Below, one piece after another: positions 1 through 43,889 of a stretch of DNA of 47,826 bases; positions within the stretch are counted from its first letter, which is position 1, and every line of letters starts with the position of its first letter. Under the pieces are notes generated by a model. The model saw nothing but the letters and a program-made list of their open reading frames with translations, did no database searches and was not told the origin of the DNA. Both the position numbers and the translations under genes were made by a program. The stretch comes from an uncultured Fibrobacterales bacterium (GTDB taxonomy: Bacteria > Fibrobacterota > Fibrobacteria > Fibrobacterales > CAWVXU01), in contig CAWVXU010000011.1 of assembly GCA_963934255.1 (NCBI GenBank), positions 1 through 47,826 on the forward strand. The letters are read 5' to 3'.

Positions 1-2
1 AC

Positions 3-1493
3 ATTCTTTGTGGCTTGCTGGTTAAAACACAGTACATGATTGAGAAAAAACTTCACAGCCTAAAAACGGTTCCCTCTGCCAATCTTAATGACTCAGGCTC
101 CTACTCAACTCACTCTCACCAAGTCTATTTCAATAAATTGTCGCAATTGGAAATCCTCCAGATTGATTGGGTAGTAGGCCTCAACCTCGACCCTCTCATT
201 TTGGAAATACTGCAAAGTAACGGTTCTCAAATCCTACACTTTGAATCCAATCAAGAACTTCGAGCTAATCCAAACGTACCGGACTACTTTGCCGCCAATA
301 TATGCCAAGTACCCGGCCTTTCAGTGTCACTAAGTATGTCAAAGAATGGTCAAGTATTTGAGCTAATTGAGAACACTGTCTATAATCGTCATTGGTCAGC
401 ATTAAAAAATGAATCTCAATATTTAGAGCTCAGTGTTCATCTCATTGAGAAATACCAAAAGTTGCTCTACTCAAATGAAAAGTTTATCGCTTCACAAGGT
501 TCAAATCATCCTAAGATGTCTCTCAAAATTGGTAACCACTACCCGAGTACTTGGGGTGTCTTAAAATATTCTGCTTCATTCTACAACCGAATATTAAGAA
601 AGCCAATTCGAAAAATTGTTCAAAAAATTAAACCGGTTCGTTTTAATTGTTGGCATCTTATGATTGGCCAAGGTCAACTTCTAAGTCATAACATTAGCCA
701 TTCTGCTGATTCTATCAAGCAAAGGGATATGACTAGGGGCAAAATAAATTTACTCAGCATGCCTAAGAACGAATTTTGGGCTGATCCATTTTTGTTTAAA
801 TTTCAAGGTTCTCTTTGGGCGTTTTTTGAAAACTATTCTTATCAATCTCATCGTGGTAAAATAAGCTGCGGGAAAATTATTGACAACCAAATTGTTGATG
901 TTCAAGACGTTCTCAATCTACCGTATCATTTATCCTACCCTCAAATATTTGAAGAACAAGGTGAAATATTTATGATACCAGAAACTTGTGAAAACAATCG
1001 CGTCGAAGTGTATAAGTGTCTTTCATTCCCAACAAAGTGGGTGCTATATTCTACAGCATTTGAAGGTCAACCTATCTCAGACACAACCTATCATAAAGAT
1101 GAACAAGGGCAGGCATGGCTTTTTCTCAACAAAGGTTTAGGAGCGCAGGTCAATGCAGAGCTATTTATTTATCAGATAAATTCCTTAAAGTTTGAATCAA
1201 TTATCCCACATAAGCAAAATCCTGTATTAATTGACTCAACTTGTGGTCGTAATGGTGGTTCGCTTTTTAGGCACGAAGGCACGTTAATGCGGCCTGCACA
1301 AAACAACTCTTATGGCATCTATGGATATGGTTTTGGTGTCTATCAAATTAATTCTTTGACGGTGGATGAGTTCAAACAAACATTAGTTCAAGAGTTTCAC
1401 CCTAATTTCTATCCTGGGATTTTCTCAACTCATCATTTACATCAGATTGATGATCATTTTATTATTGATGTCGCTTTTGAAAGAATGAGCTAA
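3..1493 (+). CDS. Beta-propeller protein of the GINT1 N-terminal-domain / GH43-like family found in polysaccharide loci; probably 5'-truncated by the window edge
   Basis: The frame is open back to position 3. C-terminal half motifs FWADPFLF, HLSYPQIFEE..IFMIPET, GRNGG and RPAQ match this family. Confidence 0.65.
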   Translation: MLCGLLVKTQYMIEKKLHSLKTVPSANLNDSGSYSTHSHQVYFNKLSQLEILQIDWVVGLNLDPLILEILQSNGSQILHFESNQELRANPNVPDYFAANICQVPGLSVSLSMSKNGQVFELIENTVYNRHWSALKNESQYLELSVHLIEKYQKLLYSNEKFIASQGSNHPKMSLKIGNHYPSTWGVLKYSASFYNRILRKPIRKIVQKIKPVRFNCWHLMIGQGQLLSHNISHSADSIKQRDMTRGKINLLSMPKNEFWADPFLFKFQGSLWAFFENYSYQSHRGKISCGKIIDNQIVDVQDVLNLPYHLSYPQIFEEQGEIFMIPETCENNRVEVYKCLSFPTKWVLYSTAFEGQPISDTTYHKDEQGQAWLFLNKGLGAQVNAELFIYQINSLKFESIIPHKQNPVLIDSTCGRNGGSLFRHEGTLMRPAQNNSYGIYGYGFGVYQINSLTVDEFKQTLVQEFHPNFYPGIFSTHHLHQIDDHFIIDVAFERMS

Positions 1494-1511
1494 GCTACGG
1501 CTTAGAAAAAC

Positions 1512-2417
1512 CTAATACCATACTTTATTCATCAGCCGAGAAAATAAATCAACGAAGCTTCTGATTTCTATTGGCTTAGCTAGTCTAAGCTTGACGCTTT
1601 CCTTGAGTCTTAGGCGGTTACCATCAAATAATGGTCCTATTTCTAAATCATCATCTGCCTTAATCCTCGCCTTGGTTTGGCTTAAATCTATATCAAATGA
1701 CTTTTCTATCATACTTAAACACTCAAGTGGTTCTTGTACATAGTCTTCGTATCTTACTTTTAAAGTTTTATAGCCCATCCCTTTTAGTTTCCAAAGCGTC
1801 AGGCTACTAAATAAATTAATCAAGAAGAAATATATATTAGCAGAAAACCAATGCCGTGAAACTTGTTCTTCTACATTTTTACCAAATGATTGAACTACTG
1901 AAACAGGGTCTCTTACTAAATAAAGAAGACAAAGTTCAAATTGCGTAGTTTTACCTTTAAATACTCGTCCCAAATTAAGGGCTCTTGGTTGATATTTTGA
2001 GCTATCTACAATGTGAGCTTCATTGACTATCTCACTCAAAACCTCAAAAAATACTTCCATCTCTTTTTTATATTGAGATTGTTCACTTTGAGTTTTACGA
2101 CCAAGAAAATTAGTCAGAAATTGTTTCGGGTGTTCTAGGGTTTGATGCCTAGAATGAACCTCTTCAAAATTAATCTCATATCCTAACTTAAGTTCATACG
2201 TTTTCTTAAAATATTTCCAAAATCTATCCTTAGCAGTGCCGACTTCATTATTGCGTGGGATTCCGCCTAGTTCAAAATACCTGGTCAATTCCCCTAACGA
2301 TAAATTTTCTTTACTATTTCCGAGCAATATGTCAAGCATAGTCGTTCCGCTGCGTCCTGCACCCATGATATAAATGAGTTTTCTCTTAGGTAGAGTCGAG
2401 CTGTCGACACCAATCAC
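1512..2417 (-). CDS. PAPS-dependent sulfotransferase (RSGT/S type)
   Basis: 5'-phosphosulfate loop [11 protein letters not shown], then LGE, VDSSK, the 3'-phosphate motif [11 protein letters not shown] and VRYED. 4-bp overlap with the upstream gene. Confidence 0.85.
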
Positions 2418-2932
2418 GCATTACCTTCAATTCTTTTTTTAATCACTTTGGCAGGATTTCCACCAGCAATTGAATTCGCAGGGACATCTTTGGTTACAAT
2501 AGCTCCTGCAGCAATTATAGTGTGGGCCCCAATATGCACACCGGGTAAAATAATAACATTTGCACCAATCCAAACATCGTCATCAATGACAGTTGTAGAC
2601 TGAACTTTACCTTGCTCGCACATTGGAATATCAATTCTATCGTGACCATGATTCCTTGAGTAAATCTTCACATCGGGTCCCATCATAATATTCTCACCCA
2701 TCAAAACATGAGACTGAATCATACAGCGAGTACCAAGCTCTGAGCCTGACCCAATACGGATATTAGGCGACACATCTGCATTAAACTTGACGAAAATATC
2801 CTTACCTGCTTCAAGAGCAAACCTGCGAACTAAAAATATCCTTAACTTAGGGAAAAAAAATGCATAGGGTCTATAGATCTCAGGTGTATACCTAAAAATA
2901 GTGATATAAAGTAAATACCAAATATTCCTCAT
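2414..2932 (-). CDS. Hexapeptide-repeat (left-handed beta-helix) sugar O-acetyltransferase
   Basis: [46 protein letters not shown], typical of the maltose/WcaF-like acetyltransferase family. Confidence 0.9.
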
Positions 2933-2933
2933 A

Positions 2934-4082
2934 TTAAACCCCTTGGCTCAAATCACGATATAGCTTTAGTTGAGCCCGACAAACACTTTCTAAAGAGAAC
3001 TTATCTTTATTTTTGGTGGCTTCCAAACTCATTTTCAAATAATCCTCTTTACTTAAAGAAATGGCTCTTTTAAATGCTTCGAGTAGTCCTTGCCCGGAGG
3101 TCTCATTACATACATAGCCATTTACCCCATCATTGATTTGTTCAGGAAGCCCCCCCACTGGTGTGACAATAGATGGAACTCCACAAAACATCGCTTCACT
3201 GACAACAAGACCAAAAGCCTCCATACGCGAAGGCAAGAAATGAAATTTCGATTCAAAAAACAATTCTCTTATTTCCGCTTGTGGGAGATTGTTAAATATT
3301 TCAACATGATGAAATTCTTTAAGGCTTTCAATTTGGGCTTGCAAAGAACCAGACCCGATAAAACAAAAATTAAGTCTACCATCTGCAGAAAGTTCTTTCA
3401 AGGACTCTAGTATAAAGTCAATCCCCTTATGGATTTCAAAAGTACCAACAAAGACAAAGTCGTACTTTTTTTGGGAGGCAGGTTTTGAGTCAGGTTTTGA
3501 GTCAGAATCTAGTTCTATACTCGAGGCTGGACTCGATTTTTGATTCAATCGCTGACTCGGGTCAGGATAAAAGATTCGGTGATCCACACCTGCACACAAG
3601 ACATTGGTTCTTGTCATGGACAATTTTTGGTGAACGGCTTTTTCTAAAGCTTTTCCAACGGGAATAGCAAGATCAATAGACTTTGCTAAATAGGTAAATA
3701 TCTTTTGATTGATTCCACCATTAATCTGGGTATTGATATCTCCACCGTGGAATGTTACCATGACTTTTGCTTGTAAGTGAAAAAACTTATAAACCCAGCA
3801 CAAAATAATCAGAGGGTAAAAGTAATGTAAATGGATGACATCATATTTCTTAAAATAATATGGCGTGAATTTAATCAAAAACATAAAATATTTCCACAGG
3901 CTACCAACTGGCCCTGTGAAGCTTCTTTTCATGTAATAGATTTCAACTTTGTCTAAAGTCTCATTAGCGAGATTGGATTCAGCACACATTTGATTTAAAG
4001 ATTCAAATTGATTTTTGACAAATACACCTGCATAAGGCTTGGCCTCAGAAGGGTACATATTTGAAATCAAAAGCACTTTCAT
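2934..4082 (-). CDS. GT4 (GT-B fold) glycosyltransferase
   Basis: [13 protein letters not shown]-terminus, FVGT..HKG and [16 protein letters not shown] (EX7E). The ATG at 4082 forms an ATGA overlap with the upstream stop, so it is preferred over TTG 4094. Confidence 0.9.
3479..3505. repeat. 12-bp tandem duplication (CAGGTTTTGAGT x2) encoding DSKP-DSKP inside a Ser/Pro-rich GT4 linker
   Basis: Directly visible: caggttttgagt caggttttgagt cag. Confidence 0.8.
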
Positions 4083-4963
4083 GAATATTTCCAAAGATCT
4101 AAATCACGACCTAATAAAGTTTCTAGTTCAGCAATATCTTTTTTAAAATATTTATCAAATATTTCTGCTTCACTAATCTGAAGATTAAATTCAAGCTGAC
4201 CCACCTTAGTATTCTTATTTTTAAGCCACATTTTGAATTTTTTACGGATTTTTTCGGACGGCATAAATACTTTACTTACTTTTTGAATAAGCGTAGATCG
4301 ATACAGAACATGATCAATCCATCGATGGCGTGGTATACCAGTATAGTTTGATCTTTGCTCAGTATTAAGGTCAACATGAGAAATTCCTAAGAACTCTTCA
4401 ATATCAAAATACGTGTTTGCTTTGTCTTTAATGTATTCTTCAAAGATGACAATGTGGAAATTTTCAAATGGGAAAAACTCTAGCCATCTTTTAAGTTGAG
4501 CCGCATAATAACCTCGGTCAATGAAACTGATACGAGCCCGAGTCTGATAGTCGGCTTCAGCCAACCGACTCGCTTCTGTTTCAAAAGCCTCTTTAGCACT
4601 TATCGTTTCATTACCCCTAGACACATGCATTTTATAATGTGACAAGGCACGCGTAACAGGGTTCCTTAACATCAAAACAAACTTGGTATCTTTGCCCAAA
4701 CTATCAAATATTCGCTTGGGAACATCGTCAAAGTAGATATAACTCGGGGTCATCTCGCCAATAATTTTCTCACCCTGTACGCCAGAAAAGTATTCTTCCT
4801 GATAGAATTCAATGCCCCGATTCCAGTATTTAGGGTCATCAAAAAAATGCGTCTCTTTGATTGGTGGTAGATAAACATCTGGGTGGTCTTTAAGTACATC
4901 GTACAAAGTAGTTGTACCAGCCTTAGCACTCCCAATACAAATAAAATTTGGATATTTTTTCAT
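4079..4963 (-). CDS. PAPS-dependent sulfotransferase (heparan-sulfate N-/3-O-sulfotransferase-like motif set)
   Basis: [40 protein letters not shown]. Confidence 0.9.
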
Positions 4964-5835
4964 TATAGCTTCACCTTATATACATCTTCTAATTGAGCTA
5001 AATCACTTTTAAAATACTCTTCTAAAAGATTTTGGTTTTCTATTTCTGGATTAACGACATTGACTTTATTCAATTCTTCAACTTTGGCAACAAGTCTTCC
5101 TCTAAGCCAAATTTTCACACGGCTAGAAAAGAGTATTGCAAATACCTTTTTAACCAATGAGTTTTTACTCTTAAGGAAATTTTGTAATGATTGAGATTTA
5201 ACGACACTCGCTTTATTGTATTCAACACTTGTGTCTACTTCAAAACTTGAATCAATTCCTAAAAATTCATACATATCCTTCAAGACATCATTTGATTTGT
5301 TTCTTAAATCATCATCTTTGATAATGAATATGTTTTCTTTAGTAAAGTGCTTTGACCATCTATCTAAGTGCTTAGCGTACAAGCCATTTTCAAAATAGTT
5401 AAGGTCATGGTATCTCAATGTATCCATTGAATCTAGATCAAGAATACGGCCCTTGGCCTCTAGTAACGATTGGCATTCTGTCTCCCAACCGTTTTTGACC
5501 GCGTAGTGAAATGCTGAGTTAGCGCGAGTCACAGGGTCTCTCAAGCAAACAACAATTTTCATATCAGGATTGTAATCAGCAACTCGCTGTGGAGCATGAA
5601 TATCAGGAAGCATATGAACAAAACTTGATGCTATCACCTTTTCGTTTTTTACACCACTAAAAAAACTGTGGAGATATTTTACACCTTTTTTGTAAAAGTC
5701 TTGATCGACGAAATACGTAATTTCTTTAATCTCTGAAAAATAAATCTCTGGGTGCTGCTTTATATAATGATACAAAGATGTCGTACCGGCTTTTTGAGTT
5801 CCAATGATCATTAGGTTGACTTTATTATTGTGCAT
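4963..5835 (-). CDS. PAPS-dependent sulfotransferase
   Basis: IIGTQKAGTTSL, KEITYF, LRDPVTRANSAF, NGLY. Start placed at ATG 5835 (MHNNKV), overlapping the wzy stop. Confidence 0.88.
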   Translation of the reverse strand: MHNNKVNLMIIGTQKAGTTSLYHYIKQHPEIYFSEIKEITYFVDQDFYKKGVKYLHSFFSGVKNEKVIASSFVHMLPDIHAPQRVADYNPDMKIVVCLRDPVTRANSAFHYAVKNGWETECQSLLEAKGRILDLDSMDTLRYHDLNYFENGLYAKHLDRWSKHFTKENIFIIKDDDLRNKSNDVLKDMYEFLGIDSSFEVDTSVEYNKASVVKSQSLQNFLKSKNSLVKKVFAILFSSRVKIWLRGRLVAKVEELNKVNVVNPEIENQNLLEEYFKSDLAQLEDVYKVKL

Positions 5836-7120
5836 AATTTTTCCTCTGTGGCCTTTGACCTCTAAGCTCACATAAATTAAGGGCAAATAAAATTGAAAGT
5901 AAAAAAACTAGAAATGAATTACTCAATACGTGTCCTGCTAGGACTGCGGCTATAGTGAGCAAAATGAACGCAAATTTAAAAGAACTATTGAATGAACTCT
6001 TGGGCTTGTGATGTTTGTACCAAGTGTATGCTAAAAAAAGAGTAAAAATGGTAAAGCCAAGCATTCCATAGCGTGCTATAAAATCAACAATATCCAATTC
6101 GGCCGACTTATTTTTTCCCATAATTGGAAACATAAAACTATGGGCATATTGAAAACCCTTACCAAACACAACTTGATAGAAATCTGCATTTAAAAATTCG
6201 GTCGTATATTTATCAAAAAGGAAAACTCGCACACCAAGTAGTATGTCTAATATATTTGTTCTTGACTGTATGGTATAAATTAATCTTCCATAGATACCCA
6301 ATGGTAAGAGATCAAGTATGACGTGTATATAATTCCATATAAAACTAGCAACACCAATTCCACCAATGGTGATGACTGGTATGGTGATGATTCGGGTTTT
6401 ATGAAGTAAAAATGGCATGTAGATAAATGATAAAAGTACTGACCCAAGTGTGGATTTAGACCCAGTTAATATTGCCACCAAACTGACCATAACAACTAAT
6501 ACAAGCGCACCCTTGTCCCTGTATGTAACCCCATAGTATAGGACCATTGGCAATGATACAACTAAATATGCATTAAGCTCATTACCGGCCTGATAGAAAC
6601 CCGAGTATCCGCCACCTTCATAATTCGAAAAAGAGATGCCAAGTGTAAAAGGTAAAAGAACATTGATAGCGACAAAGAATGTGTAAAAAAGAAAACAGTT
6701 TTTAAGTATGCGCCAATCCACTAAGCCTTTGTCCATTAATATTTTTAAATAGAAGTATGAATAAAAAGGTAAGGTTGTTTTTTGTACCCCAGCTAATCCC
6801 TTAATGAAGTACCCTAAGTCTTGATGGAAATAGGCGTTTGATAATTCTACCCACAAAAGGTAAAATACAAACAGCCCAATAGCTATCATCTCCGTTCTAT
6901 ATTCTTTATGGAAAATTGTTCTGATAAATAAAAATGTAAACACTAGAGGCTTACTCAATTGCCCTAAAGATAATGAACCAAGACCGTACTCAGTTTGGAA
7001 AGAGGTTACAACATCTATAACACATATTGTTGCTATAAACAAATAAAGAGACCATTCAACTCGATGGTCCCTAATTAACCCGAGAATGGGTCTATTTATG
7101 AGAGACGACAATCCAGCCAT
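5825..7120 (-). CDS. wzy: Wzy polysaccharide polymerase / O-antigen-ligase-family membrane protein
   Basis: About 10-12 hydrophobic segments, with SGFYQAGNEL, LTGSKS, SAELDIVDFIARYG and AGHV. Located among wzx/wzz. Confidence 0.75.
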   Translation of the reverse strand: MAGLSSLINRPILGLIRDHRVEWSLYLFIATICVIDVVTSFQTEYGLGSLSLGQLSKPLVFTFLFIRTIFHKEYRTEMIAIGLFVFYLLWVELSNAYFHQDLGYFIKGLAGVQKTTLPFYSYFYLKILMDKGLVDWRILKNCFLFYTFFVAINVLLPFTLGISFSNYEGGGYSGFYQAGNELNAYLVVSLPMVLYYGVTYRDKGALVLVVMVSLVAILTGSKSTLGSVLLSFIYMPFLLHKTRIITIPVITIGGIGVASFIWNYIHVILDLLPLGIYGRLIYTIQSRTNILDILLGVRVFLFDKYTTEFLNADFYQVVFGKGFQYAHSFMFPIMGKNKSAELDIVDFIARYGMLGFTIFTLFLAYTWYKHHKPKSSFNSSFKFAFILLTIAAVLAGHVLSNSFLVFLLSILFALNLCELRGQRPQRKNYAQ

Positions 7121-8366
7121 TCTTTTCTAGTTGTCTACTCGTTGCATCATACTGGTAACTTTTAACCACTTTTCGTTTTGGATCAAACTGAGCTATGCTC
7201 TCTTTTTTAGCGAAGATCATGGTTGATGTTTTACCTACAATATGTACTTTGCTGTCATTTTGAACAACATAAAAACCTTCGTTAATCACATTGTGAATCG
7301 TTTTCCATTGTTGGTATCTTGGCTTGGCTACTCCACCTACTTTAAAATATCCAGCTGTACCTCTTTTTTTAGGAACATCGAGTAGTTTCCAAAGATAGGC
7401 ACGTTTGACTTTATTTTTATAACTGAACTTAATCATTTTTAATGTTTGAGTCATATACGACCCTGCATCTAGTTCCTTATTTCTAGCAACCATCTTCTTA
7501 TCAGTCTTATCATTGAGTTTAGCGTATGTCCCATAAGCTGATATCACACTATTTTTTGTGTAGTTGGGCGTGAAGGTGCCCAGGTTTGTTTTTCTAGTAC
7601 CCCAAGTTGTTAAGTACATTGAGTATGATTGAGTAATCCCGTCACGCTTAATAAATTTATCGAAATCCTTGTGCATAGCATTAGCTCTTTCTCTTGGATG
7701 CCCAAAGTACCCTGTCGAATAACCACAACAGGTCATGTCAAAACCGGCCTTTTTTAAGATTGGTCGAACGGTGTTATAGTATTTTCTAAAATCATCTGCA
7801 TCACCCCAGAAATAAAGATTTGCATTGGGTTCGCTGCCAATTTCAAAACTCACCTTTTTTTCGATTCCTTTGGCTTTTACCAAGTTCAACAAATGTTTCA
7901 GAGTATCTTTATAAGCCTGATAATCTGAAGGTGGGAATCTATTTGAAAACTTATAGCTTCTCTTGAGCTTACCCTTGGGCATTGGGGATGTTTTTTTGCC
8001 ATGTTCTTTGTAATAATCTTTGAATTTAGCACCTTTTTCTTTTGGAAAATTTGATAGGGACACTTCAACTGTAAAGCCTTTTTTAACCAATTCGTTTATA
8101 TAAGAAACAATTTCTTCATTGGTTTTGTTGGCCGACCACGGTTCATAAAACATAATATGATCCAAACCATCTTCTTTAAGGGTTTTTAGAGCTGGTGTTT
8201 CTATTGGTACGTCATTAAAGAATCCTAGATTAAATCCGAAATCCATTTTATGAAAGGGTTTCACTTCATCTAGGATTGGATCCCTTGCTTCTACAGGGTT
8301 CTCAACTAGCACATAAGCTGCTATAGCTATAATTAAGGCTATGATGATTTTAACCGCATGTTTCAT
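7092..8366 (-). CDS. Exported or membrane-anchored Lys-rich GH39-like (clan GH-A TIM-barrel) protein
   Basis: N-terminal hydrophobic signal/anchor, then FPPSDY, FEIGSEPN (acid/base motif), YLWKLLD and GYF..GG.AKPRY. Confidence 0.55.
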   Translation of the reverse strand: MKHAVKIIIALIIAIAAYVLVENPVEARDPILDEVKPFHKMDFGFNLGFFNDVPIETPALKTLKEDGLDHIMFYEPWSANKTNEEIVSYINELVKKGFTVEVSLSNFPKEKGAKFKDYYKEHGKKTSPMPKGKLKRSYKFSNRFPPSDYQAYKDTLKHLLNLVKAKGIEKKVSFEIGSEPNANLYFWGDADDFRKYYNTVRPILKKAGFDMTCCGYSTGYFGHPRERANAMHKDFDKFIKRDGITQSYSMYLTTWGTRKTNLGTFTPNYTKNSVISAYGTYAKLNDKTDKKMVARNKELDAGSYMTQTLKMIKFSYKNKVKRAYLWKLLDVPKKRGTAGYFKVGGVAKPRYQQWKTIHNVINEGFYVVQNDSKVHIVGKTSTMIFAKKESIAQFDPKRKVVKSYQYDATSRQLEKNGWIVVSHK

Positions 8367-9249
8367 CTTTTCTCCAGTGTTCTAAATTAAGTCCAGTAAG
8401 ATCTTCAAGATCAGAAGTATCCTCTTGATAATGTTTTTTGAATAATTCTTGTGCAAATATAGAGTCTATTTTTTCTTTGGTGGCATTTGTTGAGCTGTTA
8501 AATTTCATTATCAACTCCCTTACTTTTCTTCTTACTTTCACACCCGGAACTAAATTTCTCATGATTTTTTTTATACCACTTGGTCCGAATACTAATTTTT
8601 GCAATGCCATATTTTTGGGTACAAAGGCTTCGTTAGTTCTATGAGTGAAGTTTAAATCTTCTCTGTCTAGTCCAAGGAAATCTTGAATTTTATCATATGT
8701 TGCTTTGGGGTTTTGAACCAAATCAGTTTCAAAACAAAGAAAAAGCATTTGGCTTTTATCAAAGAATTCTAAGAACTTTAAGATCTGTTTGGCGTAATGT
8801 CCTCGAGTAATGTAACTATACAATCTCTTGGAGTAGGCTTCCTTGCCTAAACTATTAAGGTCTGCATCTATGGCACTCTTGAAATCAGGGTAGTCCACAT
8901 AAGTTCGGCGAGAGTTATGTTGATACTCACTCCACGCCCGATTGACTGGTTGTCTTAAAACAAATACAAGTCGTACGTTCTTTCCAAGAGTGTCAAATAT
9001 TCTCTTGGGCGTATAATCGTAGCACATATAGGCGGGCGTAATCTCACCTTGCATCATTTCTTGATTGGCATTTTTATAAAAATCAAAGTACCAATCCTTT
9101 CCCTTATCAAAATTTTCATGATTATCAAAAAAATGAATCTCTTTTGACTGAGGTAGGTATAACTGGGAATGTTTACAAAGAACATCATGAAGGGCGGTTG
9201 TTCCCGCTTTCGGGGCCCCTACACAAATAAAATGAGGTTTTGTTTTCAC
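8350..9249 (-). CDS. PAPS-dependent sulfotransferase (heparan-sulfate N-/3-O-sulfotransferase-like motif set)
   Basis: CVGAPKAGTT, KEIHFFD, GEITPAY, LRQPVNRAWSEY, RGHY. ATGA overlap with wzx. Confidence 0.9.
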   Translation of the reverse strand: MKTKPHFICVGAPKAGTTALHDVLCKHSQLYLPQSKEIHFFDNHENFDKGKDWYFDFYKNANQEMMQGEITPAYMCYDYTPKRIFDTLGKNVRLVFVLRQPVNRAWSEYQHNSRRTYVDYPDFKSAIDADLNSLGKEAYSKRLYSYITRGHYAKQILKFLEFFDKSQMLFLCFETDLVQNPKATYDKIQDFLGLDREDLNFTHRTNEAFVPKNMALQKLVFGPSGIKKIMRNLVPGVKVRRKVRELIMKFNSSTNATKEKIDSIFAQELFKKHYQEDTSDLEDLTGLNLEHWRKDETCG

Positions 9250-10613
9250 GCTTTTCTCCTCATTAATTTAATAATCTTATTTGGATGTAAAAATATAGGA
9301 AAATTCCAAAAACCTAGCTTCTGCTTAATGACTAAAATACAAATGACATTATTCAGTACAATTGATATTAAGCTAGCCCACGCAGCACCAATAATTCCAT
9401 ATATCGGGATCCACCAAAAACTAAGCGATATGAGTGAACTAAGAGACAGTAGTAATATATTTTGAAATATCTTTTCATTGCCAGTCATTTGCAAGATATT
9501 GACAGTTGGACCAGCTGCTGCTGCAATGAAACGACCCATTGCCAAAATAATTAAAACTTGTGCTCCGGCTTTAAATTCGTCACCATAGAAATTCAAAATA
9601 AACTCGGGAAATATCAAACAAAACAGGACCACAGGCATGGATACTATAAAACTGAGCGTTGTAGCAATGTTTGCAATTGATTTGAGCTTTTTATTATCAC
9701 CTTGTATGTAGGCCTCTGCAAATTGAGGGGTTGTTATTGAATTGACTGCTTTAAGTGCAATAGCTGAAAGCATTGAAATCTTAACTGCAGCTGCATAAAT
9801 TCCGATATCAGCTTCGCTTACAAATCGGCCAAGAAGTTGTATGCTCACCTGTGACATAATCACACCCATTGAGCTTGCTAGAGCTAGTGGTAAGGCGAGT
9901 TTAAATAAGCCATTTGAAATAGGTATTGAATTAGACTCCTCGCTCAAATATTCAGGCTTCTTGTTGGTTTGCGACTTTATTTTATAATAAGCATAACTTA
10001 TAGCTAACATGCCAGTAATTAAAGTCGAAGTCACATAACTAAAAACTTCTGGTCTAAAATTCACTGAATCTTGAGATATAATTTTGAAAACAAAACCACT
10101 CAAAAGGATGATTGAACAAAGCTGTAAAGCTCCTAATCGAAAAAATGTATAGCTTTTGATTTTTTTCAAACCACGTAAAGACTCACTTGATACAATCATC
10201 AAACTTAAGCCTACTATCGCTGGTGCGAAGTATTTCAAAAGATTTAAATACTGAGGCTTTTGATACCAATGAACGAGAAGTAAATCCGAGAGAAACCAGA
10301 ACAGAACACTTAAAATAACAGATGAATAAAAAACATAGCTTGACACTTTTTTAAAGTACGTAAGTATTGATAAATTATCATTTTTGGTTTTTAATTGAGC
10401 AATAATTTTAACCGACGCACGATCAAATCCCATGACACTGACTATAGTCAATATGTTCAAAAGAGACACGCCTAGACTAAGAAGCCCAAATGACTCCGCA
10501 CCATAATGGCGGCTCACAATAATCCCGAACAAATAGCCTGCCATCATTCCCACAATTTGAATAACGAACGAAGAACTTGCTTTTTTAATAATAGCCTTAA
10601 GTTGTTCGCTCAT
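9246..10613 (-). CDS. wzx: Wzx flippase (MOP/MATE-like polysaccharide repeat-unit flippase)
   Basis: About 12 TM segments, with SRHYGAESFG, DIGIYAAA, FYGDEF and IPIYGIIGAAWA. Start is uncertain between 10613 and 10625. Confidence 0.88.
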   Translation of the reverse strand: MSEQLKAIIKKASSSFVIQIVGMMAGYLFGIIVSRHYGAESFGLLSLGVSLLNILTIVSVMGFDRASVKIIAQLKTKNDNLSILTYFKKVSSYVFYSSVILSVLFWFLSDLLLVHWYQKPQYLNLLKYFAPAIVGLSLMIVSSESLRGLKKIKSYTFFRLGALQLCSIILLSGFVFKIISQDSVNFRPEVFSYVTSTLITGMLAISYAYYKIKSQTNKKPEYLSEESNSIPISNGLFKLALPLALASSMGVIMSQVSIQLLGRFVSEADIGIYAAAVKISMLSAIALKAVNSITTPQFAEAYIQGDNKKLKSIANIATTLSFIVSMPVVLFCLIFPEFILNFYGDEFKAGAQVLIILAMGRFIAAAAGPTVNILQMTGNEKIFQNILLLSLSSLISLSFWWIPIYGIIGAAWASLISIVLNNVICILVIKQKLGFWNFPIFLHPNKIIKLMRRKA

Positions 10614-11478
10614 CAGGCTCATCAAGTAAGTTTTTAAAATAAAGGTAGAGTGGTTTTGTTAATGCATAGACGATCCAAATAAAGTTAGACATGAATATTG
10701 CAAGAATCAGCATTAAAATTTTGTTTGGCTTAGAAGGTTTAAGTGGGACAACAGATGAGTCAATGATATCGAAAGATAAATCATCTGCGAGCATTTCTTT
10801 TTCAATCTCATAAGCTAACAGCACTTGGATTTTCGAAAGTATCATGGGATTTTGAGTTCTGCCGAGTCTTGATTTTAAAAACTTTTGATTTCGTTTTGAC
10901 TTCTCTATCACATTACTTTTAAGATAAAAATTGACATCCTTTAAAAAGCGATCTACCCAAATCTTAGACTGTCCTTCACCTTGGATTGTCATACTAATTG
11001 TAATTGCACCCGCAGTAGCATCCTTTATAATAACTAAAATATCATCTTTAAACTTTGTCACACCTTTAAGGGTACTAGGCTGAAGTCTCTTCTTCTCTAT
11101 AGTCCATTTCGAAGCTGTAGAATCCCAATCTTTATAAAAGATGGCCGGAAGTAAATCATACTTCTCAATGTAAGACGAAATAAAATCTCCACTCTCCATC
11201 AGAAGTACTGTCTTGTCCATATTTGTCGAACCACCCACGCCAAGTGTAGCACCTACCATTGAACCAAGGCCGCCTAATTTTGAAAGTAAATCTGCCGACG
11301 ATGGACCTTCAGCTTCTTTTGGAGAGATTACTATACTAGAAGTATAGAAAGGGGTCGCCCATAAAATAAGATAACAAAAGGTTAATGTAACGATGACCGA
11401 GTGAATGATCATCCAGGACCATTTGCGTTTCCATGCCAGTCGAATCACTGACGCCAAATCAAAATCATTTGAATCCAT
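10597..11478 (-). CDS. wzz: Wzz-type chain-length determinant / polysaccharide co-polymerase (no tyrosine kinase domain)
   Basis: FDLASVIRLAWKRK N-terminus, two TMs flanking a periplasmic domain, and VPLKPSKPNK before the last TM. RBS AGGAG at 11484-11488. Confidence 0.85.
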   Translation of the reverse strand: MDSNDFDLASVIRLAWKRKWSWMIIHSVIVTLTFCYLILWATPFYTSSIVISPKEAEGPSSADLLSKLGGLGSMVGATLGVGGSTNMDKTVLLMESGDFISSYIEKYDLLPAIFYKDWDSTASKWTIEKKRLQPSTLKGVTKFKDDILVIIKDATAGAITISMTIQGEGQSKIWVDRFLKDVNFYLKSNVIEKSKRNQKFLKSRLGRTQNPMILSKIQVLLAYEIEKEMLADDLSFDIIDSSVVPLKPSKPNKILMLILAIFMSNFIWIVYALTKPLYLYFKNLLDEPDERTT

Positions 11479-11486
11479 GTGAACTC

Positions 11487-14186
11487 CTAAAGTTGCCCAG
11501 AACGCTGCATGATGGTAATGACGGCCACCATCGCACTAAGCGCAATAGTGATACCTTGCACGAATTCTTTATAATCAAATTCGTCATCTTCACTCGGTTC
11601 AATATATGCTTTAAATGGTACAATTACCTTTGAGCCCGAAACAATCTCTGGTCCTCCGGTAAACCAACCTGGATCAGCTTTGAGACTTTGTCCATTTGGA
11701 TAGATGATATAAACTTTTTCAATATCTGCTGTGTCAAGAACTCCACCACCACCAAGGTTCACATAGTCCTCCCAATTCCAATCAGGATTAAATGTTGACA
11801 TTCCGGGGCTAAGCACAGCACCTTCAATAGATACTGAATGATTATTTTGTGTCACGAATATTGTATCACCACCGTGGGCTTTGGTGTGTGAGTCTAATTT
11901 CCATTTATCTTCTGACTTAACTGTTCTGACTGGTATTGCACTGAGGTCTAATGAGTCACGCTTGATAGAAACTCCAAATATATTTCCACGAACTGTTAAG
12001 CCACCTGCTCGATTGACAATAGATTGGACTGACTCGCCAATTCCTAATACTGAATAGCTACCTGGGGCCGCAACTTCTCCGATAAGAGTAACAAACTCTG
12101 GGGCACCCTTTTTAGGGTCTAATTTAAAAGTAACCATCGCGCCAGGTTGTATCAAGCTATTGTTGTTTAAGTTTTCGCTTGTGATTGAGAAAAACTGTGG
12201 TTTGACAAAGTTTTCAGCTTTTTCAAAATCAGGATTTGAAATCTCTACTCTTGATGAATCAACTTGATATGAAAACTCAGGTATATGAGACATAATTAAC
12301 CCCAGGTTAAGTTCAGTTGAGTATGGCAAAAGCGTTGCTTCTTGGCCCGGGTACAAAACAACTACCGGAGGTGAATTTTGATGGAGCTTTTTATTTACTA
12401 CAACAACACGGTCGTTCTTTTCTAGAAGTGTGCTTCTTAAAAAATCTTTTTGAGATACTTCTAGTTTTGAAAGTAATTTTTTTTCTGGGCCAACAGCAAT
12501 GTACTCGCCACGACCTGACTCTGTTGTTCTAATAACAACCATGCGGGCCATTGAACCATCTAGTGCTCCACCAGAGCGTTGGATAGCCGCAGCAAGACTC
12601 ATATTTTTGGTCCAAAATATTTTACCTGGTAGTTCAACGTTACCAAGTACTTCAATTGAGTCTCTATTGGCTAAAGCATTTTGATGCCATGTTAAAACTG
12701 AGTCACCATAACTCAGGATAAAACTTTTTAGACTCGATTCATCGTTGACTAATGTGAAGGCATTGCGAATACCTTCTTTGTTGCGCACAACTTCAATATC
12801 TGGTTGAGCATGTTCTCTGAGTCCACCTGCTTTTTCAATCAAGTCCCAAAGAGATGTTTTACCATCTTCAATTGAGTAAAGGCCCGGGAGTCTCACACCA
12901 TCGCCGGACACCCATGCATGGTTGCCAAGACGAACTGCTTTTCCCATAAATCTTAACCGGTCATGGTTTTGCAATTTGAATTTTATCCAAGAGTTCTTGC
13001 GAAGATCCAAATCAACGACTTCTCTACTAGCCCCTTTTTTCTCAATATCTTTCAGAGCAATTGTACGTTCAACTGAAAGTGAGAATGCCTGCTCGGGATC
13101 TTCTAGGCCACCCGCATATTCAATCAGCTCACTTAATTTTTCATTGATTTTAGACTCAAAAATACCAGGGTTTCTCACACCATTTTCAATCTTAACTACT
13201 GGGCCTAAATTATTAAAATGAATAATATCACCTGATTGGAGACCACGCTCTTTCATCTTGCCCTTATGTAAAAATTTATAAAGGTCAAAAGTCTGAATCA
13301 CTTTACCGCCACGAATCAGCTCAATGTCACGGACTGAACCAAAATCATTGGGGCCAGAACTCATCACAAGCGCTTGCCATAGTGTGTAATAGGGAGGAAT
13401 GGGGAATGCACCTATGCTTGCTGCGGCGCCAGAAATACGGACTGAAATAGTACTCGTTGCGATAATGCGCATCTCGCCTTGAACGCCTGCCATATCCTTT
13501 AAAGTTCGAGACATGAAGTTTCTCAGTGAACGGTAGGTCATGCCTTTCAAGTATACTTGTTTATTAAAGGGTTCTAAAAATGCAAATCCATCAGCTCCTA
13601 CACTGATAACTTGTTCATGATTAACTGAGCCCCAAAGGCGGAATAAAACCTGATCACCTTCTTGAATCACATAATCAGAGGGGATTTTACCCGCTTTTAA
13701 TTCTTCTGGTGAAAACTCTTTGAAGTAAGATCGACCATAAATTTTAGAGTGAGGGAATTCTTTAGCATCTTCAATAGCTATTGAATCAAGAGCAGCTGAA
13801 TCAAGTGGCGGCAGAACAAATTTATTCCAAAGCGCCGTGTCGGCATAAAGTTCACCCATAAATATCGAATCATTCATTAATGAATCAAGCTTTATACTAT
13901 CCAAAAACCCACCAGATTCTACCATCGCCCTCTGAAGTGGTGAAAGGCTATCGAGCGGATTGAACTGATAAGTCGAATCCAATATCATCACGTCACCTGA
14001 ACTCATCACCAAGGAATCAGTTGCTTCAGGAGCTTTTTGAGAGCTGTATTTACTTGCCACCGCATCCAAAAGAGATGGGTTTTGAGCAATCATGTCTTCA
14101 ATATCACCCGAACTCGGTGTAAATTGAGCAAAACTCAATGAAAATGAGGCCAAAACAGCCATAAGCAATGTAATAAGGATCCGCAT
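11487..14186 (-). CDS. Large OPX polysaccharide export protein with multiple SLBB beta-grasp domains (Wza/KpsD/OtnA-like)
   Basis: Signal peptide, Poly_export motif PSDYVIQEGDQV..WGS, repeated G.V..PG...L...AGG units and a C-terminal amphipathic helix. RBS AAGGAG. Confidence 0.88.
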   Translation of the reverse strand: MRILITLLMAVLASFSLSFAQFTPSSGDIEDMIAQNPSLLDAVASKYSSQKAPEATDSLVMSSGDVMILDSTYQFNPLDSLSPLQRAMVESGGFLDSIKLDSLMNDSIFMGELYADTALWNKFVLPPLDSAALDSIAIEDAKEFPHSKIYGRSYFKEFSPEELKAGKIPSDYVIQEGDQVLFRLWGSVNHEQVISVGADGFAFLEPFNKQVYLKGMTYRSLRNFMSRTLKDMAGVQGEMRIIATSTISVRISGAAASIGAFPIPPYYTLWQALVMSSGPNDFGSVRDIELIRGGKVIQTFDLYKFLHKGKMKERGLQSGDIIHFNNLGPVVKIENGVRNPGIFESKINEKLSELIEYAGGLEDPEQAFSLSVERTIALKDIEKKGASREVVDLDLRKNSWIKFKLQNHDRLRFMGKAVRLGNHAWVSGDGVRLPGLYSIEDGKTSLWDLIEKAGGLREHAQPDIEVVRNKEGIRNAFTLVNDESSLKSFILSYGDSVLTWHQNALANRDSIEVLGNVELPGKIFWTKNMSLAAAIQRSGGALDGSMARMVVIRTTESGRGEYIAVGPEKKLLSKLEVSQKDFLRSTLLEKNDRVVVVNKKLHQNSPPVVVLYPGQEATLLPYSTELNLGLIMSHIPEFSYQVDSSRVEISNPDFEKAENFVKPQFFSITSENLNNNSLIQPGAMVTFKLDPKKGAPEFVTLIGEVAAPGSYSVLGIGESVQSIVNRAGGLTVRGNIFGVSIKRDSLDLSAIPVRTVKSEDKWKLDSHTKAHGGDTIFVTQNNHSVSIEGAVLSPGMSTFNPDWNWEDYVNLGGGGVLDTADIEKVYIIYPNGQSLKADPGWFTGGPEIVSGSKVIVPFKAYIEPSEDDEFDYKEFVQGITIALSAMVAVITIMQRSGQL

Positions 14187-14277
14187 TTGAGCTCCTTTTT
14201 TTAAACTATAAATATTGCTGTAAATCTAGTAAATTCAACGCAATATAAAGCTTTCACTACCCCTTAATAAAAGGCTG

Positions 14278-14288
14278 TTTGCTATATT
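14278..14288 (+). promoter_or_regulatory. Putative extended -10 promoter (TTTGcTATATT) for a leaderless wecA-cysQ transcript
   Basis: TG-n-TATATT ends 7 nt before ATG 14296, and there is no Shine-Dalgarno sequence. Confidence 0.5.
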
Positions 14289-14295
14289 ATTGCAT

Positions 14296-16233
14296 ATGAT
14301 TGAGTTTTCTCTACTTCAAAACTTCCCTAAGCTACTGATATTCTCTCTTTTACTGGGGGTCGTCCTATCCATATTGCTCACTCCCCAAGTGATTAAATTT
14401 GCCCACAAATGGGGAGTAGTCGATCAGCCTAACGAACGCAAAGTACACCAATTTGCTATGCCGCGGATGGGTGGATTAGCTGTTTTCGTTAGTTTCTTTA
14501 TAACACTGGCTTGTGTTTTTCCTTGGCTCCCCGAAGGCGACAATCAAGCGCTTTATGGTTTACTGATAGGTGGAGTCTTCATATTTGCACTTGGACTTTA
14601 CGATGATTTTAAAGAAATCTCCGCCAAATACAAGTTTTTAGCACAGATACTCGTTGCTCTCTTTATCGCCTCTCAAGGTGTTTTGGTTCAAGAAATTGAC
14701 CTCCCACTATTTAGTTCACCCTTGTCTCTTGATTGGTATATCAGCTGGCCTCTGACGATTATTTGGATTGTGGGGGTTTGTAATGCTATTAACCTTATGG
14801 ATGGACTTGATGGTTTAGCAGCCGGTATTAGCCTGATTGTACTCGTGACTATCTCGGCTGTGGCACTTCTCTCACAAAATTACCTGGTTGCATGGATTTC
14901 AATTCCACTCATCGGAAGCCTGCTCGGATTCTTAAAATACAACTTCAATCCTGCCAAAATTTTCATGGGCGATTGTGGCTCGCTTTTTTTAGGCTATATG
15001 CTTGCTTCGCTTAGCTTACTCAATTCGAGTCTTGAAACATCGACCGTCTCGTTAATCATGCCCGTTGTCGCGCTTGGTCTGCCGATTTTTGACACTGTTT
15101 TCTCAATGATACGACGTGTTTTAGTGGGCAAAAAAATGTTTCAACCAGACAAAGAACATGTACATCACCAAATCCTCCGCAAAGGGTTTTCTCATAAACA
15201 AACTGTAATCATTCTTTACCTAATCGCCAGTGCCTTTTGCATACTCTCATTTGCTTTTATTGCTATGAAAAACAAAGGTCTAGCTGCACTAATATTACTT
15301 TATCCTTTAATGTTTTACTGGCTAGTGCGCAGGCTGGGTTATCTCGGTAAAATTGCCACTATTCGAAATCGTTGGCTGCGCCGCCTCACAAGAAATGTCT
15401 ACGCCCAAGATTATAAACTGGATACTTCTGCGACTAGATTTTTTAGATATCTGACTTCCAACTCTAAATTTTTGATGATTTTGGATTTAGTTTCATGGTC
15501 TTTGACATGGAGTGTTGCACTTTGGTTTGTCCACCCTACGTTTGTTTGGAATTCTAGCGCTATTGCCAACCTCAGCCATTCATTTGGACTTTACCTCATA
15601 TTTAACGTCATTACCTTTAAATTGTGGCTCTGCTATATATTTGTTTGGAGATTTTTAGAGTTCAATAGCATCGGTCGATTCTATAAATCTAGTTCCATTT
15701 CTATTTTGTCTTCTTACTTGTTGATGCCCTTTGTCGCTCCCAACAACTTACTCACTAATCGCTTTTTTATTCTGTTATGGATATTAAATATTGTTGCCAT
15801 TACCTTAATTAGGGTAGGCCACAACTACTATTTCAACTTTGTAAAAAGAGAAGCTTCTCATCTAAAAGAGGGTGAAAAAGTTCTGATCTATGGTTGTGGT
15901 GATAATGCTAAGCTCATTCAAACGTTATTTACTCGCATGGATAACTTACAATATAATTTGATTGGATTTATCGATGACGACCCTCTTAAGCAAGGTAAAT
16001 GCATCTATAGATATCCTGTAGTTGGCACCACTTTAGAGCTTGCTGGAATCATTAAAGAGCATGAGATTACTGATTTAGTTTTCTCAACTATCCCCACAAT
16101 TAAAAACATGGAACTACTTGAAGAACTTGATCGAAAACATGAAATCAAACTAACTGTTTTTTCTGTTGAACTACATGAAGTTCACAACATGGATTCTTTA
16201 CGATCGACTATTCAACAAAAATTAGGAGTTTAA
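14296..16233 (+). CDS. wecA: WecA/MraY-family undecaprenyl-phosphate HexNAc-1-phosphate transferase fused to a C-terminal TM + Rossmann-like module
   Basis: DQPNERKVH..MPRMGG, GLYDD, NAINLMDGLDGLA, FNPAKIFMGDCGS and DKEHVHH. The C-terminal module has VLIYGCGD..GFIDDDP.KQG. Confidence 0.88.
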   Translation: MIEFSLLQNFPKLLIFSLLLGVVLSILLTPQVIKFAHKWGVVDQPNERKVHQFAMPRMGGLAVFVSFFITLACVFPWLPEGDNQALYGLLIGGVFIFALGLYDDFKEISAKYKFLAQILVALFIASQGVLVQEIDLPLFSSPLSLDWYISWPLTIIWIVGVCNAINLMDGLDGLAAGISLIVLVTISAVALLSQNYLVAWISIPLIGSLLGFLKYNFNPAKIFMGDCGSLFLGYMLASLSLLNSSLETSTVSLIMPVVALGLPIFDTVFSMIRRVLVGKKMFQPDKEHVHHQILRKGFSHKQTVIILYLIASAFCILSFAFIAMKNKGLAALILLYPLMFYWLVRRLGYLGKIATIRNRWLRRLTRNVYAQDYKLDTSATRFFRYLTSNSKFLMILDLVSWSLTWSVALWFVHPTFVWNSSAIANLSHSFGLYLIFNVITFKLWLCYIFVWRFLEFNSIGRFYKSSSISILSSYLLMPFVAPNNLLTNRFFILLWILNIVAITLIRVGHNYYFNFVKREASHLKEGEKVLIYGCGDNAKLIQTLFTRMDNLQYNLIGFIDDDPLKQGKCIYRYPVVGTTLELAGIIKEHEITDLVFSTIPTIKNMELLEELDRKHEIKLTVFSVELHEVHNMDSLRSTIQQKLGV

Positions 16234-17004
16234 ATGCAACCTTCCATTGATATGAAAAAACTAGTAGAAATTGCCCAAGAAGCTGGTGATACTATTATGG
16301 AAATCTACAAACGCGACTTTACTATTGAATACAAAGAAGACGAATCTCCATTAACTGAAGCAGATAAAGCTGCTCACGAGGTGATCGTTAAAGGGCTCCA
16401 AGAGAATTGGCCAGAGATTCCGATACTATCTGAAGAAGGCAAAAGCATAGAATACTCTGAGCGAAAAGATTGGGAAAGCCTTTGGATTGTTGATCCTATA
16501 GATGGCACCAAAGAGTTTATTAAAAAAAATGGCGAGTTCACTGTAAATATTGCGCTTGCTTTTCAAAATGCAATCATTGGGGGTGTGGTTTATGCACCTG
16601 CTTTAGGAGCGATGTATTATGGCTTTGAAGGCTTAGGTGCATTTAAAACTCAAGATGGTGAAACGACTCAGCTTCAAGTAGAATCTTCTTTTACTACACC
16701 ATCAGAAGGTAAGGACCTTGTTGTCGTTGCAAGTCGCTCACATCGCAGCGAAGAGCTAGAAATCTACCTCGACAAACTTTCAATCAAAGAAGTTGTCTCC
16801 AAAGGTTCAAGTTTAAAAATATGCCAGGTAGCTGAAGGGTCCGCGGATCTTTATCCTCGTATTGGATTAACCATGGAGTGGGACACCGCAGCAGCCCATG
16901 CAATTGTGAAATTTGCTGGTGGTAACCTTTATCACGTAGGAACTCATCAAGAGCTCGACTACAATCGTGAAGAATTACTTAACCCTTATTTTGAAGTTTA
17001 TTAA
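16234..17004 (+). CDS. cysQ: 3'(2'),5'-bisphosphate nucleotidase CysQ (PAP phosphatase)
   Basis: SPLTEAD, LSEEG, WIVDPIDGTKEF, GEFTVNIAL, SRSH, GSSLK, TMEWDTAAAHAI, NPYF. Confidence 0.95.
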   Translation: MQPSIDMKKLVEIAQEAGDTIMEIYKRDFTIEYKEDESPLTEADKAAHEVIVKGLQENWPEIPILSEEGKSIEYSERKDWESLWIVDPIDGTKEFIKKNGEFTVNIALAFQNAIIGGVVYAPALGAMYYGFEGLGAFKTQDGETTQLQVESSFTTPSEGKDLVVVASRSHRSEELEIYLDKLSIKEVVSKGSSLKICQVAEGSADLYPRIGLTMEWDTAAAHAIVKFAGGNLYHVGTHQELDYNREELLNPYFEVY

Positions 17005-17049
17005 AACAGCATAAGTCAAATCAATGGTGATACTTCATCCTTGAATTAT

Positions 17050-17835: not shown

Positions 17836-17836
17836 A

Positions 17837-19651: not shown

Positions 19652-19658
19652 GCAGAAG

Positions 19659-19669
19659 AAATTAGCAAA
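19659..19669 (-). promoter_or_regulatory. Putative extended -10 promoter (TTTGcTAATTT) for a leaderless ompA-GT2 transcript
   Basis: Minus strand reads tttgcTAATTTcttctgcATG: 7-nt spacer, no SD. Confidence 0.45.
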
Positions 19670-19692
19670 TTTCAAAGCCCTAGGAGGTGATT

Positions 19693-43871: not shown

Positions 43872-43878
43872 ACAGATA

Positions 43879-43889
43879 AATATAACAAA
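43879..43889 (-). promoter_or_regulatory. Putative extended -10 promoter (TTTGtTATATT) for a leaderless pglF-galE-wzi transcript
   Basis: Minus strand reads tttgtTATATTtatctgtATG: 7-nt spacer, no SD. Confidence 0.5.

Follow-up and report, generated by a model that had tools for sequence, protein, structure and literature searches.

Synechan, the product of the xss cluster of Synechocystis sp. PCC 6803 (pSYSM), contains rhamnose, mannose, galactose, glucose and sulfate in the proportion 1:1:1:5:2, with no amino or uronic sugar; its production requires the sulfotransferase gene xssA, and deletion of xssE left synechan unreduced (PMC8205485). Vibrio sp. KMM 8419 has three sulfotransferase (ST) genes and a capsular polysaccharide (CPS) with one sulfate per disaccharide (PMC11641403). 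GH39 is a retaining glycosidase family with a glutamate nucleophile, which in PslG of Pseudomonas aeruginosa is Glu276 and has been trapped covalently (PMC11912335). Here we describe a locus at positions 1512 to 17004 of a 47,826-nucleotide stretch of DNA (the window) from an uncultured Fibrobacterales bacterium, in which four sulfotransferase genes are interleaved with genes for Wzx/Wzy polysaccharide assembly and with a gene for a GH39-fold protein that lacks the catalytic nucleophile. The cluster likely makes a sulfated surface polysaccharide by the Wzx/Wzy route. In the fuller form that we consider probable, this polymer would have a short repeat, be multiply sulfated and probably O-acetylated, and the nucleophile-less protein would bind the polyanion and not cut it.

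Genes and proposed pathway of the sulfotransferase locus

Eleven minus-strand open reading frames (ORFs) lie within positions 1512-14186, in the order OPX-wzz-wzx-ST-GH39like-wzy-ST-ST-GT4-acetyltransferase-ST (GT, glycosyltransferase). Of their ten junctions, eight are overlaps, with lengths that vary with the start codon chosen, and the remaining two leave 1 and 8 bp between the genes. A wecA fusion and cysQ diverge from this operon across 103 bp. An initial annotation had described the same gene order, coupling and divergent pair, with a gap of about 110 bp, and was borne out by the ORF calls and Pfam. An initiating transferase, a Wzx flippase, a Wzz co-polymerase and an OPX protein, by which a Wzx/Wzy locus is recognized, are all present (Table 1). 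The OPX protein has many SLBB repeats and, by hydropathy, a hydrophobic signal at its N-terminus and a hydrophobic helix at its C-terminus; a paralog is encoded on contig C52 of the same genome. In the WecA fusion, residues ~1-355 form the transferase and residues ~398-626 correspond to the non-catalytic membrane/Rossmann region of WcaJ/PglF-type proteins. No other WecA-like gene was found in the genome, and because its WecA equivalog score lies under the cut-off, the N-acetylhexosamine (HexNAc) identity of its substrate is putative. WecA homologs of similar extended length (~545 aa) occur in the related loci L023 and L092. The wzy-like protein has no Pfam match.

All four STs carry the 5'-phosphosulfate-binding (5'-PSB) and 3'-phosphate-binding (3'-PB) motifs for 3'-phosphoadenosine 5'-phosphosulfate (PAPS). 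ST1-3 exceed both Pfam sulfotransferase cut-offs; ST4 exceeds that of Sulfotransfer_3 over residues 15-49 only (32.5 versus 27 bits) and has 229 homologs, with PF13469 in nearly all among the 120 matches listed. On these cut-offs, motifs and homologs the earlier count of four sulfotransferases holds, as does the observation that they lack signal peptides: none of the four has an N-terminal hydrophobic stretch or a predicted transmembrane (TM) helix by hydropathy. Pfam and BLAST found no further sulfotransferase elsewhere in the genome. A profile built from ST3, ST1 and 19 of 51 homologs scored synechan XssA at 1e-42, and one built from ST4 and 43 of the 120 homologs listed scored XssE at 7.5e-16, the two synechan proteins being assigned by gene order against PMC8205485. 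The solved structures nearest to ST1-3 are bacterial 3RNL, which scores far above the animal enzymes, and then the animal heparan 3-O- and N-sulfotransferases; in NDST1 the match covers the ST domain only. A single-sequence search of the PDB with ST4 gave nothing significant, and its profile lies nearest to the polyketide (CurM) and tyrosylprotein sulfotransferases.

The cysDNC genes, sought outside the window, were found as cysD and a cysNC fusion on contig C73, so PAPS should be available in this genome. These PAPS genes, the STs without signal peptides and the homology to XssA and XssE support the scheme of cytoplasmic sulfation, Wzx/Wzy polymerization and export that had been put forward for the locus. 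A second APS-kinase-like gene (PF01583 over cut-off) lies in G000 C56:446-12178 (L010), in an operon resembling those for nonulosonic-acid/phosphoramidate biosynthesis, and is probably a sugar or nucleotide kinase and not a true CysC.

Table 1. Features of the locus and its immediate flanks, in window coordinates.
Feature	Position	Strand	Remarks
GINT1_N beta-propeller protein	3..1493	+	convergent on ST4, ends 18 bp from it; frame begins on C34
ST4	1512..2417	-	second sulfotransferase subfamily; profile matches synechan XssE and CurM-type STs
Hexapeptide-repeat acetyltransferase, WcaF/maltose-O-acetyltransferase-like	2414..2932	-	below all curated cut-offs
GT4 glycosyltransferase, sole GT of the minus-strand operon	2934..4094	-	Pfam/family matches
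ST3	4079..4963	-	ST1-3 family; 43% to L020 (G041) ortholog adjoining wzx
ST2	4963..5886	-	ST1-3 family; 47% to L100 ortholog, 41% to G041 ortholog
Wzy polymerase/O-antigen-ligase superfamily membrane protein	5825..7120	-	Atlas features 0.99, TM 0.80 to O-antigen_lig/Wzy_C clusters
GH39/PslG-fold protein, likely exported	7092..8366	-	acid/base Glu179 kept; Ala277 at nucleophile; net charge +31
ST1	8350..9249	-	PAPS-dependent sulfotransferase of XssA/3RNL/HS-3-OST-like family; 38% to first ST of G041 block
Wzx flippase	9246..10625	-	Polysacc_synt/MatE/Polysacc_synt_3; 11 predicted TM helices, pI 9.7
Wzz-type chain-length co-polymerase without kinase domain	10597..11478	-	Pfam Wzz over cut-off, weak GNVR
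OPX-type polysaccharide export protein, 899 aa	11487..14186	-	Pfam SLBB, SLBB_2, weak Poly_export, GfcC_C
WecA-like polyprenyl-phosphate HexNAc-1-P transferase fusion	14290..16233	+	Glycos_transf_4 6.9e-44; TIGR02380 148 bits (cut-off 326); TIGR03025 positions 2-221
CysQ PAP phosphatase	16234..17004	+	TIGR01331 over cut-off (291 vs 229 bits)
GT2 glycosyltransferase, WcaA/TuaG-like, under cut-offs	17050..17850	-	convergent on cysQ, 45 bp beyond; coupled to OmpA/TSP3 gene

In the pathway that we propose, the WecA fusion would prime undecaprenyl phosphate with HexNAc-1-P, and GT4, probably with one or both of the GT2 enzymes encoded at the flanks, would extend the unit to two to four sugars. The locus has no sugar-synthesis genes, so the precursors would be housekeeping NDP-sugars; homologs of UDP-glucose dehydrogenase, GalE, Gmd, Fcl and RmlB are encoded elsewhere in the genome. 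With PAPS from CysD/CysNC as donor, the four cytoplasmic STs would attach the sulfates; the hexapeptide enzyme would attach an acetyl group, and CysQ would remove the by-product 3'-phosphoadenosine 5'-phosphate (PAP). Wzx would flip the unit, Wzy polymerize it, Wzz set its length and the SLBB-rich OPX protein export it, and the cationic pseudo-hydrolase may escort or anchor the chain in the periplasm. This layout of Wzz with OPX is that of O-antigen-type (group 4) capsules. The substrate, the repeat length, the degree of sulfation, the placement as capsule or O-antigen and the role of the pseudo-hydrolase we infer from sequence.

The window is the whole of contig C11 of a 2.67-Mb genome that is 92% complete. 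Five Fib_succ_major matches in this genome, four of them above the cut-off, and the layout of its relatives point to Fibrobacterota, although that family also gives matches in a Bacteroides control. A single 52.7-kb contig of a public marine (seawater) run covers positions 1-19800 with 102 differing letters and one 12-bp in-frame gap, and since it holds this region unbroken, the gene order is not an assembly artifact. The window is contained in marine/seawater metagenome runs, six rows from three studies having at least half of its words; none of those listed is an RNA run, which does not bear on expression. To the left, contig C34 overlaps the first base of the window by 55 exact bp; the same 52.7-kb contig spans this joint (record positions 5-3727 on C34, 3673-23460 on the window), and the three runs matching the joint are one study. 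The base composition of the cluster is not foreign-looking (GC z -1.9 to +0.5, GC3 z -1.0 to +1.2), and we claim no donor. A scan for promoters and terminators remained at chance level (64 versus 62.8 and 13 versus 13.7). The locus is real and intact, and likely uses an established pathway to make a surface polysaccharide that is multiply sulfated. Two population variants were seen, each in two runs: a 12-bp in-frame gap at window position 3479, in a low-complexity linker of GT4, and a one-base gap at 17003, at the end of cysQ.

A GH39-fold protein without a catalytic nucleophile

The protein encoded between ST1 and wzy has no Pfam match. Its GH39-like label in the initial annotation is supported by an Atlas match and by a predicted model (pLDDT 93.5), a (beta/alpha)8 barrel with a beta-sandwich, that matches PslG and GH39 xylosidases with Z ~25 and an rmsd of 3.3-3.7 Å over 341-344 aligned residues. 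A single-sequence fold (pLDDT 44.6) was not used, and a single-sequence search of the PDB gave nothing significant. The fold is therefore confirmed; what the label overlooked is that the catalytic nucleophile is absent. The gene for PslG, too, belongs to a polysaccharide operon.

A profile search gave 102 representatives of the family, from which we made an alignment of 66 rows: the window protein, P0002 and 64 near-full-length representatives, leaving out fragments, most long multi-domain matches and the near-identical P0001. The acid/base Glu is present in all 66 rows, including the 7 without a nucleophile. At the strand-7 nucleophile column 59 rows have Glu, 5 (including the window protein) Ala, 1 Gly and 1 Gln, and a homolog on the metagenome contig L100 has Ser. 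Ala277 lies on barrel strand 7 of the model; it was assigned to the nucleophile position from the alignment and the order of the strands, and not by superposing the model on PslG residue by residue. Three more positions are changed in the window protein (Arg to Met72, Asn to Ser178 and His to Ser249). All seven non-Glu rows are without this strand-2 Arg, the Asn before the acid/base and the strand-6 His, and the Glu rows keep them in 53, 47 and 42 of 59 cases. These residues are presumably the helpers of the nucleophile in clan GH-A, the Asn binding the sugar 2-OH. Loss of the nucleophile required four changes in the family tree, at least three of them forced by well-supported branches; the tree is from a quick search and not a finished careful one. 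Judged by these residues, the window protein cannot be a standard retaining hydrolase like PslG.

No other row of the 66 is as basic as the window protein, which in this respect exceeds 99.5% of the 1141 long ORFs of the genome, and in which hydropathy shows an N-terminal hydrophobic stretch. We lean toward a role as an escort or anchor that would bind the polyanion. Catalysis by another mechanism appears unlikely. In this alternative, a group of the substrate (N-acetyl or carboxylate) or an outside anion would take the place of the nucleophile, and the protein, as a hydrolase or lyase, would trim stranded polymer, as is supposed for PslG. The universal acid/base Glu and the retained Trp187, Tyr251, Asn142 and Arg143 would suit such an enzyme, and loss of the nucleophile on at least three occasions fits selection for a function; however, the Asn, Arg and His were lost along with the nucleophile, and the Glu lacks the preceding Asp of N-acetyl-assisted enzymes. 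GH39 is, moreover, a retaining family in which PslG uses Glu276 (PMC11912335). That the protein is a relic is a slightly poorer prospect still. Changes of Glu to Ala, Ser or Gly are the substitutions used for engineering glycosynthases; a glycosynthase-like activity of the window protein is improbable, and if true, such a conversion would have happened at least three times in this family. A narrow literature search, with subscription journals mostly outside it, found no report of a nucleophile-less PslG/GH39 protein in an exopolysaccharide context. For the question of how strongly anionic polymers pass through the periplasm, a PslG-like protein without its nucleophile offers a lead that can be tested.

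Related loci

A GTDB scan with the ST profile matched at least 601 stretches, of which 587 were confirmed, and the best 79 loci were taken; their 1244 called ORFs were clustered, and 47 of 64 family representatives were annotated. At least four STs occur in 39 of the 79 related loci, with wzx in 34 of those 39, and cysQ occurs in 24 of the 79; these counts are not frequencies, because the sample was chosen by ST similarity and contains many kin. The rarity that had been supposed for such loci finds no support in these counts, and related clusters are in print. In long related loci (at least 19 kb) with at least four STs, one or two recognized GTs are seen in 25 of 29, an undercount, as only clustered GT families within 10 kb were considered. 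Two arrangements recur: OPX-wzz-MBOAT-wzx-ST-ST-wzy-like-DUF4915-ST-GT2-ST in Chitinophagales, and cysQ-wzx-ST-ST-ST-wzy-epimerase-GH-like-ST-ST-GT2-GT4-wecA in marine Flavobacteriales. The ST family is also present in 109 plasmid records. Within the phylum, the ST1/ST3 profile was found in 23 of 295 other genomes and not in the 156 other genomes of the closest families (f1-f4; G001, 78% complete).

In the marine Flavobacteriales loci (L032, L034, L039, L043, L046, L049, L054, L064 and others) a different GH-A-like protein adjoins wzy. It forms family f15 (for example, L043:13238-14578), has no Pfam match, is not matched by the GH profile of the window protein, and has an apparently intact nucleophile; its motifs resemble those of GH79 heparanases/glucuronidases.

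G041, a metagenome-assembled genome of Bacteroidia, has homologs of all four STs in three blocks: ST1-ST2-GH39-wzy-like-GT4; cysQ...wzx-ST3; and an ST4 homolog coupled to another GT4 and a WcaJ-type initiator. Since G041 holds homologs of all four STs together with the first block, this combination of genes extends beyond a single phylum. Orthology of its wzy-like protein with that of the window is judged by position, the two aligning weakly (E 0.001). On L100 the order ST1-ST2-GH39 is again seen. The GH family itself is seldom found: in 2 of the 50 genomes behind related loci, in 1 of 401 genomes on the Bacteroidota side and in 1 of the 24 from G041's order (G041 both times), and, as a partial match, in 1 of 295 other genomes of its own phylum. 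Its association with ST loci thus rests on three contexts, the window, G041 and L100. A sulfatase-like ORF (judged by eye) lies at L020:3931-5286 in G041, between cysQ and wzx-ST3. In the literature searched, with subscription journals mostly outside it, we found no relevant paper on Fibrobacterota sulfotransferases and none on Bacteroidetes Wzx exopolysaccharide clusters with sulfotransferases.

Product, alternatives and comparison with known systems

The initial annotation had assigned a single chain-extending GT to the locus. This stands for the minus-strand operon and fails for the region, since GT2 genes flank the cluster at 17050-17850 and at C34:24332-25336, the latter at the contig end and overlapping the upstream extension of the GINT1_N reading frame. 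It is possible that the right-hand GT2 is an extra repeat-unit GT, and the GINT1_N protein is possibly part of the system. Many additional GTs upstream, which had been named as grounds for abandoning a short repeat, are not there: C34 has this one GT2, and the genes further left are unrelated. There could nevertheless be up to three extending GTs, and therefore a repeat of two to four sugars.

Several observations count against the pathway or parts of it. The flanking GT2s have no clear ortholog in the 79 loci (no matches for the left one, general GT2 matches only for the right), and may belong to other pathways. The wzy-like protein is read as a polymerase from its gene context, and its fold alone does not separate Wzy from a ligase. 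The genome also encodes CysH and has a sulfite reductase-like gene, so cysDNC and cysQ would serve assimilation too and do not single out sulfation. The number of ST genes need not equal the number of sulfates, as the Vibrio sp. KMM 8419 CPS and the xssE deletion in the reports cited above indicate. For the GH39-fold protein, two other Ala-type members are slightly acidic and several Glu-type members are nearly as basic as the window protein, so in the family as a whole charge and nucleophile loss do not go together; the G041 homolog, in the same gene block, keeps the nucleophile Glu.

A special case of the pathway that we prefer is that WecA and the single GT4 make a HexNAc-X disaccharide, almost fully sulfated and acetylated, as a true glycosaminoglycan (GAG) mimic. 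We regard this as doubtful. A single GT occurs in the operon, and a single GT4 likewise closes the G041 block, in keeping with the low GT counts of long related loci; ST1-3 match heparan sulfate (HS) 3-O-sulfotransferases at 1e-9 to 1e-23; and the genome has UDP-glucose dehydrogenase and GalE. However, two GT2s flank the cluster, and in G041 the ST4 homolog is coupled to another GT4, 22% like the first, and to a WcaJ-type initiator. Moreover, a linear HexNAc-hexose (Hex) repeat has five free hydroxyls and a HexNAc-hexuronic acid (HexA) repeat four. Four sulfates and an O-acetyl group would occupy every free hydroxyl of the former and exceed those of the latter, which makes it more likely that the repeat is longer or only partly substituted, and the disaccharide proposed in the initial annotation is hard to maintain. 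The same is true of its glycosaminoglycan-like product. Of the HexNAc-HexA or HexNAc-Gal backbone that heparan- and keratan-type polymers have, the WecA fusion suggests the HexNAc. Among the locus ORFs, Pfam identified no N-deacetylase, C5-epimerase or uronic-acid gene, the remaining genome not having been searched for a deacetylase or epimerase. The likeness of ST1-3 to heparan STs is a family trait that carries no weight here, because XssA, of the same family, goes with a polymer of Rha/Man/Gal/Glc without HexNAc or uronate (PMC8205485). Going by these relatives, the ST1-3 family likely sulfates non-GAG sugars too, and nothing tested gives support to a heparan- or keratan-like product. The compound idea of a near-saturated sulfated HexNAc repeat with a natural glycosynthase-like GH39-fold protein, joining or branching activated sulfated units outside the cytoplasm, is very improbable.

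Alternatively, the product might be a sulfated O-antigen of the lipopolysaccharide (LPS), or a sulfated glycan linked to lipid or protein; the wzy-like protein would then be a ligase or an oligosaccharyltransferase. The Atlas gives O-antigen ligase families for that protein, the locus has Wzz but no Wzc, and one structure is common to the O-polysaccharide and sulfated capsule of Kangiella japonica (PMC12472108). This reading is nonetheless rather improbable, given that a dedicated OPX gene heads the operon, directly before wzz, and that other loci of the genome (window 42129-47673 and C52) could supply an O-antigen. That the STs act on small molecules or membrane lipids, their place in a polysaccharide operon being incidental, is hardly credible: the ST4 profile does lie nearest to CurM and tyrosylprotein sulfotransferases, but the STs are interleaved and coupled with wzx, wzy and GT, the arrangement recurs in dozens of loci, and both ST subfamilies have synechan members.

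Elsewhere, the right end of the window (42129-47673, minus strand) carries a second polysaccharide locus with genes for a PglF-like dehydratase, a small PglC-like transferase, an epimerase, a GT4 and WecB; beyond these lie a 527-aa ORF behind galE and, further on, fcl. G000 C52:1-8184 (L009) has a second OPX and wzz pair with WecB, TviB-like dehydrogenase, apparent oxidoreductase, acetyltransferase and aminotransferase genes, which suggests a di-N-acetyl uronic acid O-antigen or capsule. Overlapping the right-hand GT2 is a gene (17837-19675, minus strand) for an OmpA-family protein with thrombospondin type 3 (TSP3) repeats, like myxobacterial TraB (under cut-off). The window also contains a 997-aa ORF (21912-24905) that matches no family and has an unusual base skew, a GH18 chitinase-like gene (27453-28547) and a GH57/DUF3536 gene (28635-31121).

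Animal-free production of sulfated polysaccharides calls for soluble bacterial sulfotransferases with activity on defined sugar repeats (PMC13125312). The substrate is known for few such enzymes; this locus offers four, probably with different site specificities, together with the whole export chain, in a stretch of ~16 kb that a laboratory host could express. ST-rich, GT-poor loci are a widespread class and chemically uncharacterized, and this locus is a good test case for them. Taken only as a sulfated-polysaccharide locus, it adds another instance of a published design; the pseudo-hydrolase is the unexpected part.

Comparison with described systems places the locus among them. In ST1-3 a Glu aligns with the catalytic-base Glu of the animal heparan 3-O-/N-sulfotransferases, and the PAPS loops are shared with these and with bacterial 3RNL; unlike the heparan enzymes, ST1-3 have no membrane anchor, no deacetylase partner and no sign of a heparosan-type substrate. 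PslG and the GH39 beta-xylosidases (PDB 4ZN2, 9G17 and 4M29) share the two-domain TIM-barrel fold of the window protein at 11-14% identity; PslG has its nucleophile Glu276 where the window protein has Ala, and the latter lacks three helper residues. The CPS clusters of Vibrio sp. KMM 8419 (PMC11641403) and Cobetia marina KMM 1449 (PMC11766843) likewise belong to marine heterotrophs, contain ST genes (in Cobetia also cysQ) and make sulfated disaccharide repeats with O-acetyl or phosphoglycerol; they differ in ABC-transporter export, rhamnose-based repeats with one sulfate each, and cysDNC inside the cluster. The wps-1 cluster of Actinoplanes missouriensis (PMC13390465) is also a heterotroph's Wzx/Wzy cluster with sulfotransferases and a glycoside-hydrolase gene, and its product is predicted to be sulfated; it differs in having two STs, a GH26, a Gram-positive host without OPX and a role in the sporangium matrix. 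The synechan xss cluster (PMC8205485) shares the Wzx/Wzy/PCP/OPX pathway and cytoplasmic sulfotransferases, ST1-3 being of the XssA family and ST4 XssE-like. Synechan has eight GTs, two STs, two sulfates per eight sugars, an XssP-type initiator and the XssQRS regulators, whereas the window locus has four STs, one to three extending GTs, a WecA initiator, cysQ, an acetyltransferase, a GH39-fold protein and no regulator; neither the XssQ/R/S regulators, with the genome not searched for XssQ, nor the genes for an eight-GT repeat were found in the locus or its flanks.

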